DNA of 6,757 bases, taken from IMG/VR virus record IMGVR_UViG_3300030111_000059, one strand, 5' to 3'. The stretch is from a virus. The notes beneath the pieces were generated by a model. That model was not told the origin of the DNA, did not search any database, and was given only the letters and a program-made list of their open reading frames with translations. The position numbers were made by a program, and so were the translations under genes. Below are positions 1 through 6,757 of the stretch, one piece after another (the stretch's first letter is position 1; every line of letters begins with the position of its first letter).

Positions 1-90
1 AAATCCTCACCCGTTCGTTTTTTTCGCGATGAAGCGAGCGAAAAAAGCCGCTGCGGCTTGCGGTTTGCCCCCTGACCAAGGGAGAAATCA
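1..90. repeat. Direct terminal repeat, copy 1 (identical to 6668..6757); marks circular closure of a 6,667-bp genome
   Basis: Base-by-base comparison: aaatcctcacccgttcgtttttttcgcgatgaagcgagcgaaaaaagccgctgcggcttgcggtttgccccctgaccaagggagaaatca occurs at 1..90 and again at 6668..6757, exactly at the two window ends. Confidence 0.95.
17..48. other. Hairpin-forming inverted repeat GTTTTTTTCGC / GCGAAAAAAGC with a 10-nt loop, in the intergenic region (second copy at 6684..6715 inside the terminal repeat)
   Basis: Pairing read directly: 17-27 pairs with 38-48, about 11 bp plus one G-T, loop gatgaagcga. It is non-coding. Such hairpins in the ssDNA form are typical of inovirus intergenic regions. Confidence 0.5.
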
Positions 91-200
91 GTGATTGTCA
101 CGTTTTGAATCTAAAAGCGTATTGCCGATATCAGCGACTATGGCGAGAACGACGACAAAAAGAAGCCAGTATCCCAAGAAGGACATGGAATTTTCCATTT

Positions 201-572
201 TCAACTGCCTTGATACATGTGGGAATTCGGAGACGATGCCGCAACCTTGCTGGCCAAGGTCGATAACCAGACCTGCTGTTCTAGCTGATCGGGTGTGACT
301 GGACCACCAGACAGACGCCTAACCGCAATCTCACGGGCCTTGTCCTGGAGCATACAAACAATGGCAGTGTTCTCAGCCTCCGTAAGCAGAACGGCACCGG
401 GAACGAGCTTTGACGTAACGTTACCTTGCGCTAACTTCTGGCGCTCACGATAGGCGCGCTGTTTCTCGGCTGGCGTCATGGCTTTACCAGTCGAAGGGCG
501 ACCACGGCGCTTGCGCTGGGGAGGCTCATCCAGGGGGAGTGGATGAGTAGCTTTATCTGTCGGGTCGATCAT
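201..572 (-). CDS. 123-aa basic protein, putative DNA-binding or replication-regulatory protein (function unproven)
   Basis: ATG at 572 overlaps the stop of the upstream gene as ATGA (569-572), suggesting translational coupling. The N-terminal basic stretch is QRKRRGRPSTGKAMTPAEKQRAYRERQK. From memory this resembles the RGxP...MTxxEKQ...R basic motif of small plasmid copy-control regulators (CopB/RepA2, RepB-RCR_reg-like); this needs an HMM check. It is the last gene before the intergenic region. Confidence 0.6.
   Translation of the reverse strand: MIDPTDKATHPLPLDEPPQRKRRGRPSTGKAMTPAEKQRAYRERQKLAQGNVTSKLVPGAVLLTEAENTAIVCMLQDKAREIAVRRLSGGPVTPDQLEQQVWLSTLASKVAASSPNSHMYQGS
415..424. promoter_or_regulatory. 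Third copy of the 10-bp palindrome GTAACGTTAC (operator-like), inside the 123-aa gene
   Basis: Exact 11-mer GTAACGTTACC shared with 840..850 and 903..913. It lies in codons Q-G-N-V-T-S of the 123-aa ORF. Confidence 0.45.
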
Positions 573-808
573 GCTGCCGCTTCCTGAGCTTTCCAGATTG
601 CAACGTCTACATCATCGAAGTCCTCGATTTGCAAAAGCCCAGCCGCATACAGGGCTTGTGCGAAACCGCGCAGCCGGTCCGGCTTTAGCTCGCCGTTGAT
701 CGCGTCGTCTAGGTAGGTTTCGAGCACTTCATTTAACAGGCTCGTTCTGTCACGGCCTAGAAAGTGGCACAAATCGTTAAAAGCGGGGAGCAGGTTAAGG
801 CGTTTCAT
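569..808 (-). CDS. 79-aa ribbon-helix-helix (CopG/Arc-like) DNA-binding protein with an acidic C-terminal tail
   Basis: ATG at 808 is preceded by AAGGAG with a 6-nt spacer. The N-terminus MKRLNLLPAFNDLCHFLGRDRTSLLNEVLETYL fits the RHH pattern: a short beta strand, helix, G-x-x-R-S/T-x-L-L/I-x-E-x-L-x-x-Y-L. The C-terminus IEDFDDVDVAIWKAQEAAA is acidic. The 173-aa version in the ORF track is an upstream extension that runs through the promoter/operator region and into zot. Confidence 0.7.
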   Translation of the reverse strand: MKRLNLLPAFNDLCHFLGRDRTSLLNEVLETYLDDAINGELKPDRLRGFAQALYAAGLLQIEDFDDVDVAIWKAQEAAA

Positions 809-833
809 CACAGTCTCCTTGGTTCGTGCCCTA

Positions 834-863
834 ATTATAGTAACGTTACCGCAAATGTGATAA
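834..863 (-). promoter_or_regulatory. Candidate sigma70-type promoter for the 79-aa/123-aa operon
   Basis: Read on the minus strand: -35-like TTATCA (863..858), an 18-nt spacer, then a perfect -10 TATAAT (839..834). The predicted start is about 19 nt upstream of the ATG, so the leader contains the AAGGAG RBS. The palindrome GTAACGTTAC (840..849) directly abuts the -10. Confidence 0.5.
836..857. promoter_or_regulatory. 22-bp operator-like repeat, proximal copy (core palindrome GTAACGTTAC at 840..849)
   Basis: tatagtaacgttaccgcaaatg matches 899..920 (tatagtaacgttaccataaatg) at 20 of 22 positions. The core is a perfect 10-bp palindrome. Confidence 0.6.
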
Positions 864-898
864 TTGCATGTTGCTATCAGAGCAGAGCGTGCAATAGA

Positions 899-920
899 TA
901 TAGTAACGTTACCATAAATG
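899..920. promoter_or_regulatory. 22-bp operator-like repeat, distal copy (core palindrome at 903..912), overlapping the zot stop codon
   Basis: Same repeat as 836..857. The core centres are 63 bp apart. The TAA inside GGTAACG (911..909 on the minus strand) is the zot stop codon. Confidence 0.6.
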
Positions 921-2186
921 GCCGGGCTTGCCTGATCCGACCACGACAATATCCGAAGTAGAGGAACCCTCGAACTGGGCACCTCTGCCCATGCGATCAG
1001 CTCCAAGGCTATCGACGGTGCGTCGATCGACACGGCCACGGATGTCGATAGGCCACGATCTGGCGACGTAGGCGACGGATTGTTTCTCAAGCAAGAGACC
1101 GTATCCGGTCCTGGTCACAGTCCAGCCCAGGGCCTGAATCTCACTCACGCGAAAGCGTTCCTTGATGTGATAGGACGAGTCGAGCAGTTCGATCTCGCCC
1201 ATCAGTTCGCGTCCAGGCTTGTCGCTGTCCATGATGGCGGTCGCCCTGATCTGATACTGCTGGGCCATCTTGTCCAGGTAGTCGATTGGCGGCGGCAGGG
1301 CTTCGGCAGTCTGATCGGCATGCTCAGGTTTGGCAGTGACCAGGGCAGATGCCTGCATGCTCGGTGGCTCTGGATTGGTGAGGCCGGCCGATGGCTGCGG
1401 CCGCTCGACGGTGACAGCTTGCGACGGCTGAGTCGAGGCAACCGCGCCACCCGTGCCGGTGAAAAATCCATACAGGTGATACACGGCATAGAAAGCGCCG
1501 ACGAAGACGAACGGCACGCCCAGCGAGAGCAGCTTGGAGTTCTTGAGCACGTTGGTGCGCTCGGTCTGGTAGACGCTACCCTTGACCGTTTCGCGTCGGT
1601 GACTGGAGTAGAGGCCAAAGTAGTTCGTTTCATAGGAACGCACGCCAGAGCCGATCTTGACAAACTTTCCCTTAGCCTGTTTCTGCCACTGCTCCCACTT
1701 GTACTGGTTGGGGCGTCCGATGGCCTGAAGCTTGAGGAAGTAGATGATGTCCTCGATCCGGCTGCGGATGATCTTGTGAACGTCATCGCGGTCCTGACCC
1801 ATGATGACGATTTCGAGCCCTCGGTGACGATGCTCGGTCCAGAACTTCTGCTGATTGAGCGGGAGCTTATAGTTCCCGCTGGGAAAGTAGTCCTGGATTT
1901 CATCCCAAACAATCATCGCGTTGTCAGGCGTCTTGTCGGCGAACTCGTTCTTAACGCGCTCAACGTCACCGGCTGCGCCATCCTGCTCGGCAGGCTCGAC
2001 GTAGATCAGCAGCATGCGGACGTATTCGACAGGCTCGTCCAGCAGCTCGGCGAACTTCTCCCAGTTGATGCCACGAATATTGGTAACAACCTGACGTCCA
2101 GCTTTCAGGGCGGGCAGGATGTGAAAGACGCACGCCTCGTAGCTTTTGCCAGCACCTGGAAGACCTTCATGAAAGTGAATGGCCAT
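909..2186 (-). CDS. Zot-like / pI-type inovirus assembly ATPase (425 aa)
   Basis: The N-terminus MAIHFHEGLPGAGKSYEA contains Walker A (GAGKS). MIVWDEIQ is a Walker B-like motif. There is one central TM segment, LLSLGVPFVFVGAFYAVYHLYGFF, then a P/A/Q-rich linker and a C-terminal domain of about 130 aa. ATG at 2186 is preceded by GGAGG in the end of the upstream gene. The position after the pIII- and pVI-like genes is canonical. Confidence 0.92.
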   Translation of the reverse strand: MAIHFHEGLPGAGKSYEACVFHILPALKAGRQVVTNIRGINWEKFAELLDEPVEYVRMLLIYVEPAEQDGAAGDVERVKNEFADKTPDNAMIVWDEIQDYFPSGNYKLPLNQQKFWTEHRHRGLEIVIMGQDRDDVHKIIRSRIEDIIYFLKLQAIGRPNQYKWEQWQKQAKGKFVKIGSGVRSYETNYFGLYSSHRRETVKGSVYQTERTNVLKNSKLLSLGVPFVFVGAFYAVYHLYGFFTGTGGAVASTQPSQAVTVERPQPSAGLTNPEPPSMQASALVTAKPEHADQTAEALPPPIDYLDKMAQQYQIRATAIMDSDKPGRELMGEIELLDSSYHIKERFRVSEIQALGWTVTRTGYGLLLEKQSVAYVARSWPIDIRGRVDRRTVDSLGADRMGRGAQFEGSSTSDIVVVGSGKPGHLW

Positions 2187-2189
2187 CGG

Positions 2190-2483
2190 TTACCACCTCC
2201 CGAGCGTGATGGCCTTGCGGCCGAGGCGGAACATGTAGGCAGAGGCAATCATCGCGAATGCCTGCGTCAAGCCTGCTTCGGACATAAAGTAGCCGATGAA
2301 CTCCATAACAGGGCCCATCTGGTCGGAGATGGGCGTATCCATGAAGTCAGGCGGCGTGATCGTTTCGAGTACCGAGACGATGGCGTCTAGCAGGTCCTTG
2401 AGGATCGCGACGGGCTTGTCGTCCAGGTACTCGGTGGCGTCGTCCCAAAGACCTTTCCAGAAGGCCAGCGTGAAGAATTCCAT
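2190..2483 (-). CDS. 97-aa pVI-like minor virion protein (call is mainly positional)
   Basis: ATG at 2483 is preceded by GAGGTG, which overlaps the stop of the pIII-like gene. It ends 3 nt before the zot ATG. Its small size and hydrophobic C-terminal half (FIGYFMSEAGLTQAFAMIASAYMF) fit, and it occupies the slot between the adsorption protein and the Zot/pI gene. Confidence 0.6.
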   Translation of the reverse strand: MEFFTLAFWKGLWDDATEYLDDKPVAILKDLLDAIVSVLETITPPDFMDTPISDQMGPVMEFIGYFMSEAGLTQAFAMIASAYMFRLGRKAITLGRW

Positions 2484-4842: not shown

Positions 4843-4862
4843 ACGTCAAGTGCACTTGACGT
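4843..4862. promoter_or_regulatory. Perfect 20-bp palindrome ACGTCAAGTGCACTTGACGT, candidate operator in the divergent gap between the HTH gene and the structural operon
   Basis: I checked the reverse complement by hand and it is identical. Each half carries a TTGACG (-35-like) hexamer facing outward. It lies in the 85-bp gap between the minus-strand ATG (4807) and the plus-strand ATG (4893). Confidence 0.6.
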
Positions 4863-4892: not shown

Positions 4893-5270
4893 ATGCACGA
4901 AAAGAGCCCACCAACCACCGTCGAGTGGTTGGATTTGGTGAAGGAGCGTTGCGGGGTCCGGAGTGACTACAAACTGGCCGAGCTACTGGGCGTCACACGC
5001 CAAGCAATCAGCCAGCAGAGAGCGGGAAAGCAGTGCATGTCGATCATCTCAGCAGTGCGAGTTGCAGAGGCGCTGAGGCTGCCTTCGCAGGCCGTGATTG
5101 CTGGCGTGATGTACTACGGAGACCGGGAGACGAATCGCGGATTTTGGGCGGATCGATGGGCCCGTGCATGGCCAGCAGTTCAAAGACGAATCGGGCAACC
5201 GCCTCATGGCCACCAGTCTCAGCCAATCGGAGCAGAACAGCGCGCGCCTGATATGGCTGGCGAAGGATGA
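4893..5270 (+). CDS. XRE/Cro-CI-type helix-turn-helix transcriptional regulator (125 aa), candidate phage repressor
   Basis: ATG at 4893 is preceded by GGGAG with a 5-nt spacer. SDYKLAELLGVTRQAISQQRAGK is a classic HTH (helix, G-V-T turn, recognition helix QAISQ). It is the only plus-strand gene. Its 3' 227 nt overlap the 3' end of rep. Confidence 0.72.
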   Translation: MHEKSPPTTVEWLDLVKERCGVRSDYKLAELLGVTRQAISQQRAGKQCMSIISAVRVAEALRLPSQAVIAGVMYYGDRETNRGFWADRWARAWPAVQRRIGQPPHGHQSQPIGAEQRAPDMAGEG

Positions 5271-6414
5271 TCCGCCACTGATCGCGAGTGACCTGCGAGA
5301 CGCGCAGAGCGGTGGCAATCTCCTCCTGGTTGATTTCCTCATCGGTCTGGTCCGCGATCTGGAAAAGCGCCTTAAGGCCGGGCGTCCACCGAAGCTGGTT
5401 ATAGCCCTTGAATGCCGCCGAGAACTCGGCAAACAGAGCGCCGGAACGGGCATCGCCTTCGGCGTAAGAGCGCAGCAAATCGAACGGCGTGCGACCCTTG
5501 CCAGTCCCGCGCTTGGAGTTCGCCTTCGTTACTTCGCTGGCCGCTTCCCATCGGGGTTCGGTGCCCCACTTGGCGACATACTCCGCAGCCGACTCGGCCT
5601 GCTGAATGTGCACGCCACGCTCCCTGGACGGAGCCGGAAGACCAGCAGCAACCGACGAGGTTTTCCAGACGGCAAACAGCAGGCGATGAAGCATGGCGCG
5701 CTGGCGAACCGTCAGCGGCTCGGGGAAAAGCCAGAGTTCGTGGAAGTGTGGGTGCCAGCCATTGGCGTTACCGTGCGTTACCTCTAAGGCCCGGATCGAA
5801 CCCACCACGTCGAACAACTCGCGAAGGTGCTTGTAGTCGCGATGCTCGCGCATTTTCTTGGTCGCTACACGGAGCTTGCCCATAAGCTCGGAAAGCACAT
5901 CCATGCGCGCATGGCGCACAGTGAGCGTGACCATTTCGACCCCGCCACCGGCTGAAATGTGCGTGTCGATTGCCTGACGCACTTCCAGTTTGCGACGTTC
6001 CGAGATTTTGGCGGAGCAGATCGGGCAGGACCAGACAGAGGAGCAGGTCTGGAGCCCCGAGTAGTGAGCCTTGCCGGTGGCGGAGTCCTTCAGGATGCCG
6101 ACATAGCCGTCCTTGTTCGTGAGCGTCCGAATGCAGTGCCTGACGCGATGATCTGGCAGGAGCCGCCGAGCGGCGTCCTGGAGCGAAAAACGCGCTTCGC
6201 GGGCCTGTTCTGGCGTGAACTCGGGTACAAACTCACGACGCTTGTTGTCGAACGTAAACCGTTGAATTTCCCCGGTTTTCTGGTCGACAACCTCCTTAAT
6301 TCTGGCCGCGAATTTCGCAGTAGTAACAAGGGCGCCTCCGGCGGCCCGCGCTTCGCTTGCGGGCCCGCCCGGATGCGCCTTTCGCGCCTGGGCGCTTTCT
6401 GTTATAGAATCCAC
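5044..6414 (-). CDS. Rolling-circle replication initiator, HUH endonuclease superfamily (456 aa)
   Basis: HUH motif HPHFHELW (5731..5754). Candidate catalytic Tyr motif AAEYVAKW (Y279 at 5578..5580). Cys cluster CSSVWSCPICSAK (C124-C133 at 6016..6045). The motif order resembles pC194/pUB110/pIJ101-type Rep proteins. GTG start at 6414 is preceded by GAGG with a 7-nt spacer. It is the first gene after the intergenic region, as in Ff gene II. Confidence 0.85.
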   Translation of the reverse strand: MDSITESAQARKAHPGGPASEARAAGGALVTTAKFAARIKEVVDQKTGEIQRFTFDNKRREFVPEFTPEQAREARFSLQDAARRLLPDHRVRHCIRTLTNKDGYVGILKDSATGKAHYSGLQTCSSVWSCPICSAKISERRKLEVRQAIDTHISAGGGVEMVTLTVRHARMDVLSELMGKLRVATKKMREHRDYKHLRELFDVVGSIRALEVTHGNANGWHPHFHELWLFPEPLTVRQRAMLHRLLFAVWKTSSVAAGLPAPSRERGVHIQQAESAAEYVAKWGTEPRWEAASEVTKANSKRGTGKGRTPFDLLRSYAEGDARSGALFAEFSAAFKGYNQLRWTPGLKALFQIADQTDEEINQEEIATALRVSQVTRDQWRIILRQPYQARAVLLRLAETGGHEAVARFVFELLAMHGPIDPPKIRDSSPGLRSTSRQQSRPAKAASAPLQLALLR

Positions 6415-6436: not shown

Positions 6437-6487
6437 CCCCGCGAATCGTTTAGCCGGCAAGCAAACGAGCAATTCGCGGGGTTTTTT
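6437..6487 (+). terminator. Plus-strand intrinsic-terminator-like hairpin plus T6 tract, 23 nt beyond the rep start codon
   Basis: CCCCGCGAAT (6437..6446) pairs with ATTCGCGGGG (6472..6481). An inner CGTTT/AAACG helix follows, then TTTTTT at 6482..6487. On the minus strand the same hairpin would sit in the rep leader, preceded by an A-run. Confidence 0.55.
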
Positions 6488-6506
6488 ATTGCCTTGCCGT
6501 CAAGCG

Positions 6507-6535
6507 ATCTTAACGGCTCCGTGTCGCCTATCCAA
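6507..6535 (-). promoter_or_regulatory. Weak candidate rep promoter
   Basis: Minus-strand reading: TTGGAT (6535..6530), a 17-nt spacer, then TAAGAT (6512..6507). The match to consensus is only moderate, at 3/6 and 4/6. Confidence 0.25.
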
Positions 6536-6538
6536 CAC

Positions 6539-6555
6539 CAAGGGCTTTGCCCTTG
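6539..6555. other. Small hairpin CAAGGGC-ttt-GCCCTTG
   Basis: 7-bp perfect stem with a 3-nt loop, read directly; intergenic. Confidence 0.4.
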
Positions 6556-6576
6556 TCATCCCACTCTTCGCCAGAG

Positions 6577-6619
6577 GGTCAGAGGGCAGGGGAGAAAAGC
6601 TTTCCCCTGCCCTATGACC
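6577..6619. other. Strongest hairpin of the intergenic region (about 18 bp); candidate packaging signal or origin stem-loop
   Basis: AGGGCAGGGGAGA (6583..6595) pairs with TTTCCCCTGCCCT (6601..6613), giving 13 bp with one G-T and loop aaagc. After one mismatch it is extended by GGTCA (6577..6581) pairing with TGACC (6615..6619). Confidence 0.5.
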
Positions 6620-6667: not shown

Positions 6668-6757
6668 AAATCCTCACCCGTTCGTTTTTTTCGCGATGAA
6701 GCGAGCGAAAAAAGCCGCTGCGGCTTGCGGTTTGCCCCCTGACCAAGGGAGAAATCA
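6668..6757. repeat. Direct terminal repeat, copy 2 (identical to 1..90)
   Basis: See copy 1; exact 90/90 identity. Confidence 0.95.

Follow-up and report, generated by a model that had tools for sequence, protein, structure and literature searches.

The 6,757 nucleotides (nt) of viral DNA analysed here (IMG/VR record IMGVR_UViG_3300030111_000059; hereafter the window) hold a circular inovirus genome of 6667 nt, with bases 1-90 of the window recurring at 6668-6757. Downstream of the zot gene there is a cassette in which a gene for an acidic protein of 79 amino acids (aa) is followed by a gene for a basic protein of 123 aa. On balance, this cassette is probably an autorepressed accessory operon that resembles the acr-aca operons, with the 123-aa protein as an Aca-like repressor and the 79-aa protein as its cargo. 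In acr-aca operons, an Aca protein limits the burst of anti-defence gene expression (PMC9410906, PMC13551039), and Aca proteins, including Aca14 of the ribbon-helix-helix (RHH) type, have been reported to control adjacent operons (PMC13551039). This is the best-supported reading, and such an operon would be built around an undescribed family of DNA-binding proteins. As judged from comparison of related loci, the predicted regulator and its promoter form the conserved core in many inoviruses and some small plasmids, and small genes that can be swapped for one another appear to land in the position next to the promoter.

Inoviruses, which are widespread and infect chronically, carry accessory genes that for the most part have no explanation. 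Roux et al. found no anti-CRISPR (Acr) protein among the ten hypothetical proteins of inoviruses that they tested, and sought Aca candidates through similarity to known Acr systems and the presence of helix-turn-helix (HTH) domains (PMC6813254). Because that search used these two features, a regulator of the 123-aa kind would probably have escaped it.

Anatomy of the cassette

The open reading frames (ORFs) for the 79-aa and 123-aa proteins are located at 569-808 and 201-572, respectively, both on the minus strand, and overlap by the sequence ATGA at 569-572. An earlier, sequence-only reading of this DNA had reported the two ORFs and their overlap, the acidic nature of the first protein and strongly basic nature of the second, and the basic motif RKRRGRPSTGKAMTPAEKQRAYRERQK in the 123-aa protein. 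All are present, and the two proteins have pI values of 4.47 and 9.83, respectively. The 79-aa gene has a ratio of nonsynonymous to synonymous substitution (dN/dS) of ~0.2 and the 123-aa gene one of 0.05-0.08, consistent with purifying selection on both, and the two ORFs are therefore real genes.

The cassette promoter (834..863, minus strand) has a -35 element, TTATCA (863..858), separated by an 18-nt spacer from a -10 element, TATAAT (839..834). It matches 10 of 12 consensus positions and is the top sigma-70 match in the window. As the earlier reading had pointed out, the perfect TATAAT is adjoined by a palindrome, GTAACGTTAC. This copy, the putative proximal operator O1 (840..849), is located in the promoter spacer and abuts the -10 element, a position that would predict RNA polymerase occlusion. 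A Shine-Dalgarno sequence, AAGGAG (815..820, minus strand), is positioned 6 nt ahead of the 79-aa ATG. The distal operator O2 (903..912), a second copy of GTAACGTTAC, is 63 bp upstream of O1 and overlaps the zot stop codon. O2 lies within a 33-nt repeat unit (888-920) that is 82% identical to 825-857, with the same 63-bp spacing and, on the minus strand, each copy directly adjoins a -10-like hexamer, TATATC (902..897) after O2 and TATAAT after O1. The internal operator O3 (415..424) is inside the 123-aa gene, 425 bp from O1, where GTAACGTTAC falls in the codons for G-N-V-T. All three exact copies of GTAACGTTAC in the window are within the cassette; the chance expectation is 0.07 copies and three were reached in 0 of 200 shuffles. 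A scan of the window that allowed up to two mismatches identified no copies beyond these three.

An ORF encoding a 36-aa peptide with a single transmembrane (TM) segment (MENSMSFLGYWLLFVVVLAIVADIGNTLLDSKRDNH; 88-198, minus strand) starts 2 nt past the 123-aa stop codon, and is called as a gene in two records (L001 and L002). In L010, L011 and L012, the position after the regulator is occupied by unrelated TM peptides of 28 to 31 aa so that, across four related phages, the position is conserved but the sequence is not. From its location, the TM peptide would belong to the cassette transcript and, by analogy, it may be a further effector with an exclusion or toxic function. A terminator-like hairpin, AAGCCGCAGCGGCTT, followed by a T-run (38..59, with the hairpin at 45-59, minus strand; located by consensus scan only), is the probable end of this transcript. 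The cassette had been described as self-contained, independently promoted, probably autoregulated and located in an accessory slot after zot, and this description holds.

These features suggest a scheme in which the strong sigma-70 promoter, with O1 in its spacer and O2 a further 63 bp upstream, would drive a three-gene operon. From the promoter, the order would be the 79-aa acidic protein, the 123-aa regulator, the 36-aa membrane peptide and the terminator-like hairpin, with translation of the 123-aa protein coupled to the 79-aa gene via the ATGA overlap. The regulator would dimerise through a C-terminal helical hairpin and its basic N-terminal helix would read the two GTNAC half-sites, so shutting off its own promoter, with O3 possibly helping by looping or as a roadblock. 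There would presumably be a burst of expression on entry and then repression. Looping is suggested by a likeness to lac O2 and gal OI, as there is an extra operator within a coding sequence downstream of the promoter operators, and the 63-bp spacing of the two promoter sites corresponds to six helical turns. In the window, however, the internal site is inside the repressor's own gene, and inserted cargo lengthens its distance to O1, from ~190 to 425 bp.

The regulator family and its operators

The 123-aa family contains 157 proteins identified by protein search and 119 viral loci identified by locus scan, with most members on contigs of 6.5-8.5 kb or in genomes of Pseudomonas and Stutzerimonas. 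Conservation is confined to the first ~50 residues (MIDPxDKxT..LPLD..KRxRGRPxTGxAMTxAEKQRxYRER), and the C-terminal part ranges from a short helical domain in some members to long coiled coils in others. In the AlphaFold2 model of the 123-aa protein, the N-terminus is disordered and is followed by a basic helix (residues 34-48, AEKQRAYRERQK) and a confidently predicted helical hairpin (residues 65-87 and 94-112; predicted local distance difference test (pLDDT) 83-95) that probably mediates dimerisation. The N-terminus matches only PHROGs annotated as function unknown (10506, 6334, 9651 and 23279). The protein had no match in Pfam, NCBIfam or PADLOC, PDB sequence profiles returned only chance matches to Get2 peptides, and a Foldseek search of the PDB with the model returned nothing below E = 0.1, in agreement with the earlier statement that this protein is not a recognised toxin fold. 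The homologue in Pseudomonas phage 42-1 is annotated as 'replication regulatory protein RepB', but RepB-RCR_reg (PF10723), RHH_1/CopG and basic leucine zipper (bZIP) domains were not found, even at E = 10, in the window protein, in the 42-1 and plasmid homologues or in N-terminal fragments. Searches of the literature on the palindrome GTAACGTTAC and on phage 42-1 identified nothing relevant.

The promoter and operator pair are located directly upstream of the regulator gene in ~50 viral loci. In most viral loci with the helix type of the window, the GTAACGTTAC pair is at -111 and -48 relative to the family gene, the 63-bp pair is present in ~40 related loci, and the promoter context ATTTAyG-GTAACGTTAC-TATAAT is conserved in relatives. 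The pair is at -340 and -277 where a gene is inserted, as in the window, L012 and L039, which have the 79-aa gene between promoter and regulator. The intragenic GTAACGTTAC, at +139 to +148, is also frequent in relatives and encodes Asn-Val-Thr. In unique regulator genes, 21 of 24 such NVT motifs are encoded as (GT)AACGTTAC although GTT accounts for only 32% of Val codons, and the constraint therefore acts on the DNA. With the exact palindrome codons in 21 of 24 motifs, conservation of NVT for protein reasons alone was rejected.

The sequence of the basic helix varies with the palindrome. The AMTxAEKQR helix occurs with GTAACGTTAC in 45 of 46 unique units, the AL[ST]DAERAR helix with GTGACGCGTCAC in 12 of 13 and the A[LM]SNAERQR helix with GTTACGTAAC in 13 of 20, the remaining seven having none of the four exact sites, and there are no cross-type cases among these unique units, which are not phylogenetically independent. 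At the equivalent promoter position, the palindrome is CGTGACGCGTCACG in AL[ST]DAERAR members and GTCACGTGAC with the ALSGAERQRA helix. A further sequence, GCTGAACGTTCAGC, located upstream of the regulator genes in L086 and L088, was considered as an operator and dropped, as its flanks lack a promoter and are apparently the 3′-end of an upstream ORF. The cargo gene, HTH gene and Rep type all differ between loci of one operator type, and the N-terminal module of the 123-aa family is therefore the sole constant candidate for the binder. The comparative evidence is strong that the 123-aa protein would bind the GTAACGTTAC sites, and it is the predicted repressor of its own promoter.

By analogy only, the predicted arrangement of a basic helix followed by a dimerising helical or coiled-coil module is that of eukaryotic bZIP proteins, which also have short palindromic targets with ACGT-type cores, here AACGTT, TACGTA and CACGTG. 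The window protein differs in having a linker of ~15 residues between the basic helix and the hairpin and no continuous zipper. Homology to bZIP proteins was not detected, with no Pfam match and an hhalign probability of 0.2% for the regulator family versus GCN4.

L063 and the complete inovirus L008 have Rep proteins that are 98% identical, but their operator types (GTTACGTAAC and GTAACGTTAC, respectively) and regulators differ, which argues that the regulatory module moves as a unit between near-identical backbones. In L008 (3526-3756, minus strand) and 55 other loci, there is also a convergent gene for a protein of ~76-93 aa that combines a coiled coil with an RHH-like N-terminus. Most relatives whose Rep is of the Phage_CRI type have a separate promoter with GTAACGTTAC ahead of this convergent gene, which the window lacks.

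Homologues of the 123-aa protein are also present on small Aeromonas plasmids, and the plasmid homologues have GTGAC/GTCAC repeats around the -10. The 2.5-kb plasmid pAhy2.5 (L092, NC_021159.1) has only a Rep_1-like rep and a member of the 123-aa family. The latter is located at 1973-2269 (plus strand), with GTGACTGTGAC...GTCACAGTCAC repeats ahead of it, around the -10. The RefSeq ORF annotated in this region (1955-2260, hypothetical) is on the wrong strand, opposite to the family homologue. In L093 (NZ_CP148751.1), a family member (467-772, minus strand) is directly upstream of, and overlaps, mobC of mobilisable Aeromonas plasmids, and the regulator module therefore appears to be used also in relaxosome operons.

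The promoter-proximal slot and the 79-aa protein

In 48 of 66 unique promoter-regulator units, no gene separates the regulator from its promoter; in the other 18, one to three small ORFs intervene. The slot ORFs in these 18 units belong to at least nine unrelated families and encode proteins of 50-86 aa, mostly with pI values of 4.1-5.2, and the last usually ends with an ATGA overlap. L010, L011 and L013, with Rep proteins 93-99% identical to that of the window (99.3% in L011), lack the 79-aa gene, and their 123-aa orthologues (94-96% identical) are positioned directly behind the GTAACGTTAC-TATAAT promoter. Alignment of these loci with the window revealed that a 63-bp promoter unit and the 79-aa ORF are cleanly present or absent together. 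The 79-aa gene is present in L012 and L039, with 87-89% identity. In L039, a Stutzerimonas stutzeri isolate UViG, the gene (87% identical) is upstream of a different, longer regulator variant, and the window Rep has no match in this record.

In L063, the first gene after the GTTACGTAAC-TATAAT promoter encodes a full-length homologue of AcrIC5 (PF22147, E = 2.1e-19, 69.9 bits versus a cut-off of 27), a validated type I-C anti-CRISPR (PMC7913775). The other cargo families, including the 79-aa gene of the window, match nothing known, anti-defence proteins included.

The sequence-only reading had proposed that the 79-aa protein is RHH-like with a disordered tail, and this is not what is predicted. 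Based on an alignment of few relatives, the AlphaFold2 model is compact with four packed helices (residues 7-17, 23-37, 43-55 and 61-78), no strand and no disordered tail (pLDDT 93.9, predicted template modelling (pTM) score 0.81). The conserved core of the family is residues 24-69, and the N-terminal residues that would make the RHH strand are not conserved among remote relatives. As the 79-aa protein is not RHH-like, the number of putative DNA-binding proteins in this phage, previously counted as three, falls to two.

The family of the 79-aa protein is rare. There are eight close relatives, an exhaustive profile search of 1.8 billion representatives returned 17 hits, all unannotated, and ~50 members are recognised by profile search, nearly all in Pseudomonas. 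Remote relatives in P. aeruginosa belong to long small-ORF arrays that lack annotation; the contigs concerned encode KorA/KfrA-type proteins as well and, in one case (L094), an AcrF3 gene is in the same array, 3.8 kb from the 79-aa relative. No match to the 79-aa protein was found in Pfam, PHROGs, NCBIfam or PADLOC, or in annotated phages by tblastn, Foldseek searches of the PDB and BFVD with the model returned nothing below E = 0.1, and hhalign of the 79-aa family against the regulator family was negative. On the acr-aca-like reading, the 79-aa protein would most plausibly be an anti-defence or host-interaction factor.

Alternative readings and other features of the genome

Several features are consistent with an acr-aca-like operon. 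The promoter has inverted-repeat operators over its core elements, with O1 abutting TATAAT and O2 63 bp upstream; small, unrelated and mostly acidic genes come first and the conserved regulator last; a convergent gene nearby is, in relatives, under another promoter that bears an operator; and the slot of L063 holds the AcrIC5 homologue. There are also differences from the acr-aca design, as one operator is inside the gene of the regulator itself, the regulator gene is followed by one for a small TM peptide, and the host elements are inoviruses, in which a dedicated search found no Acr (PMC6813254). Some observations weigh against this reading. The regulator has no match in Pfam or NCBIfam to an HTH family, the type found in Aca1-13, or to an RHH family, the type of Aca14, and at this family level it matches no named Aca. 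The 79-aa protein matches nothing known by sequence or fold, and a known anti-defence match is present in only one cargo family of ~15. Most members of the 123-aa family, with 48 of the 66 units cargo-free, have no upstream cargo, and the regulator must therefore have a function besides cargo control, unlike a classical Aca. The helix-operator counts, as noted, are not phylogenetically independent, and immunity regions, too, are marked by operator specificities that diverge between phages which are otherwise nearly identical.

A broader proposal, which we offer tentatively as it is clearly less probable than the operon model itself, is that the 123-aa family is an unrecognised class of Aca-like anti-defence regulators, lacking both an HTH and a canonical RHH, with a basic helix that would act on ACGT-core palindromes, and that the slot genes, including the 79-aa gene, encode new inhibitors of defence. 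The family would then be the first anchor from which anti-defence genes of inoviruses could be recognised by association. If so, the motif GRPxTGxAMTxAEKQRxYRER in combination with an ACGT-core palindrome abutting TATAAT would serve as an anchor with which to mine filamentous phages and small plasmids for anti-defence and host-manipulation genes. The family would also offer a compact DNA-binding module, with a helix variant that tracks the operator type, for recognition-code studies and orthogonal repressors, and the annotations of 'RepB' in phage 42-1 and of the wrong-strand ORF in pAhy2.5 would be corrected.

Copy-number control in the style of CopG and pMV158 is the most serious rival to the acr-aca-like reading, though weaker, and we consider it unlikely. 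The 123-aa protein would then repress a transcript that partly reads through a weak terminator into rep, ~340 nt downstream, so that autorepression would set the Rep level and thereby the copy number. A CopG-type layout had been suggested previously. As in pMV158 copG-repB, a small, predicted autoregulatory DNA-binding protein is encoded upstream of a rolling-circle replication initiator, the cassette immediately preceding rep, in the same orientation, once the circle is closed, and there is no sigma-70-like promoter with 9 or more of 12 matches upstream of rep. On pAhy2.5, where the Rep homologue has 36% identity, the order and orientation of rep and the family gene are the same as here; the family gene adjoins the Rep_1-like rep and its -10 is flanked by the GTGAC/GTCAC repeats, and the 42-1 homologue is the one annotated in GenBank as RepB. 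However, CopG/RHH_1 and RepB-RCR_reg were unmatched even at E = 10 with N-terminal fragments, no operator is present near rep in the window with two or fewer mismatches, and the terminator-like hairpin and an intergenic region part the cassette from rep. The regulator gene is, moreover, antisense to rep in most 123-aa family relatives, being on the opposite strand in many with a Phage_CRI-type Rep, and copy control leaves the exchangeable cargo slot unexplained.

Less likely still is an immunity or lifestyle switch, in which the regulator would be a type-specific repressor, like RstR of CTXphi; divergent operators would result in heteroimmunity and, in relatives, the convergent RHH-coiled-coil gene would be the other half of the switch. 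Four or more operator types with matching helix variants, the different operators and regulators of L008 and L063 despite Rep proteins that are 98% identical, and the second operator-controlled promoter that drives the convergent gene in 56 loci all fit such a switch. In the window, however, operators are present only at the cassette promoter and in the regulator's own gene, with none at rep, the structural-gene promoter or the HTH gene, whereas operators at replication or lytic gene promoters are a feature of CI- or RstR-type repressors. The window also lacks the RHH-coiled-coil partner gene, and its XRE-type HTH gene, with a 20-nt palindrome of its own, is a more obvious candidate for an immunity repressor.

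The least likely alternative is an addiction or toxin module, with the 79-aa protein as antitoxin and the 123-aa protein as toxin or the reverse, as the sequence-only reading had proposed from the two small genes with a 4-nt overlap, the acidic and basic partners and the palindrome over the promoter at the -10. Pairing as a type II toxin-antitoxin system fails on family membership, antitoxin architecture and obligate linkage. Neither protein has a toxin or antitoxin match in Pfam, NCBIfam or PADLOC, the best scores being 12 and 13.5 bits versus cut-offs of 27 and 50, respectively, the latter from a RelB-like model with the 79-aa protein. That protein is predicted to be a folded four-helix domain, whereas antitoxins typically combine a DNA-binding domain with a disordered tail. 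Near-identical phages, and the majority of family loci, have the 123-aa orthologue but not the 79-aa gene, and the partner position is held by unrelated genes, one an anti-CRISPR. The assumed roles also appear to be reversed, as it is the second, basic protein of 123 aa that probably binds DNA, and the acidic protein of 79 aa is exchangeable cargo. In a variant, the autorepressor would limit the amount of the 36-aa peptide, which would itself be the effector of toxicity or exclusion. This variant draws on the occurrence of a small hydrophobic ORF behind the regulator in each of four related phages and, as an analogy only, on the small inner-membrane peptides of Pf phages, such as PfsE, that mediate superinfection exclusion (PMC8764522); this is speculation from position and hydrophobicity.

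On the minus strand, the window also has genes for a Rep_1-family initiator (rep, 5044-6414), a single-stranded DNA (ssDNA)-binding protein, an Inovirus_capsid coat protein, pIII-like and pVI-like proteins and Zot (909-2186). Contigs identical to the window are from rock-porewater and other metagenomes. Resemblance to GenBank phages is limited to the rep region, with 80% identity to 'blackswan219-6', and Rfam and tRNA scans of the window were empty.

The XRE-type HTH gene (4893-5270, plus strand) is unusually placed, on the opposite strand between rep and the ssDNA-binding protein gene, and converges on rep, with an overlap of 226 nt at the rep 3′-end. A 20-nt palindrome without mismatches, ACGTCAAGTGCACTTGACGT (4843-4862), is present in the divergent region between the HTH and ssDNA-binding protein genes and is likely an operator for an HTH repressor that controls the structural operon. 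Just past the rep start, at 6437-6490 (plus strand), there is a hairpin, CCCCGCGAAT...ATTCGCGGGG, followed by T6, that could terminate a plus-strand transcript of the HTH gene that is antisense to the whole of rep. An 86-nt intergenic segment (6534-6619) has 94% identity with intergenic DNA of Pseudomonas aeruginosa phage 42-1 and holds a 17-nt inverted repeat (6577-6593 and 6603-6619). This segment is a candidate for an origin or attachment element common to otherwise dissimilar phages.

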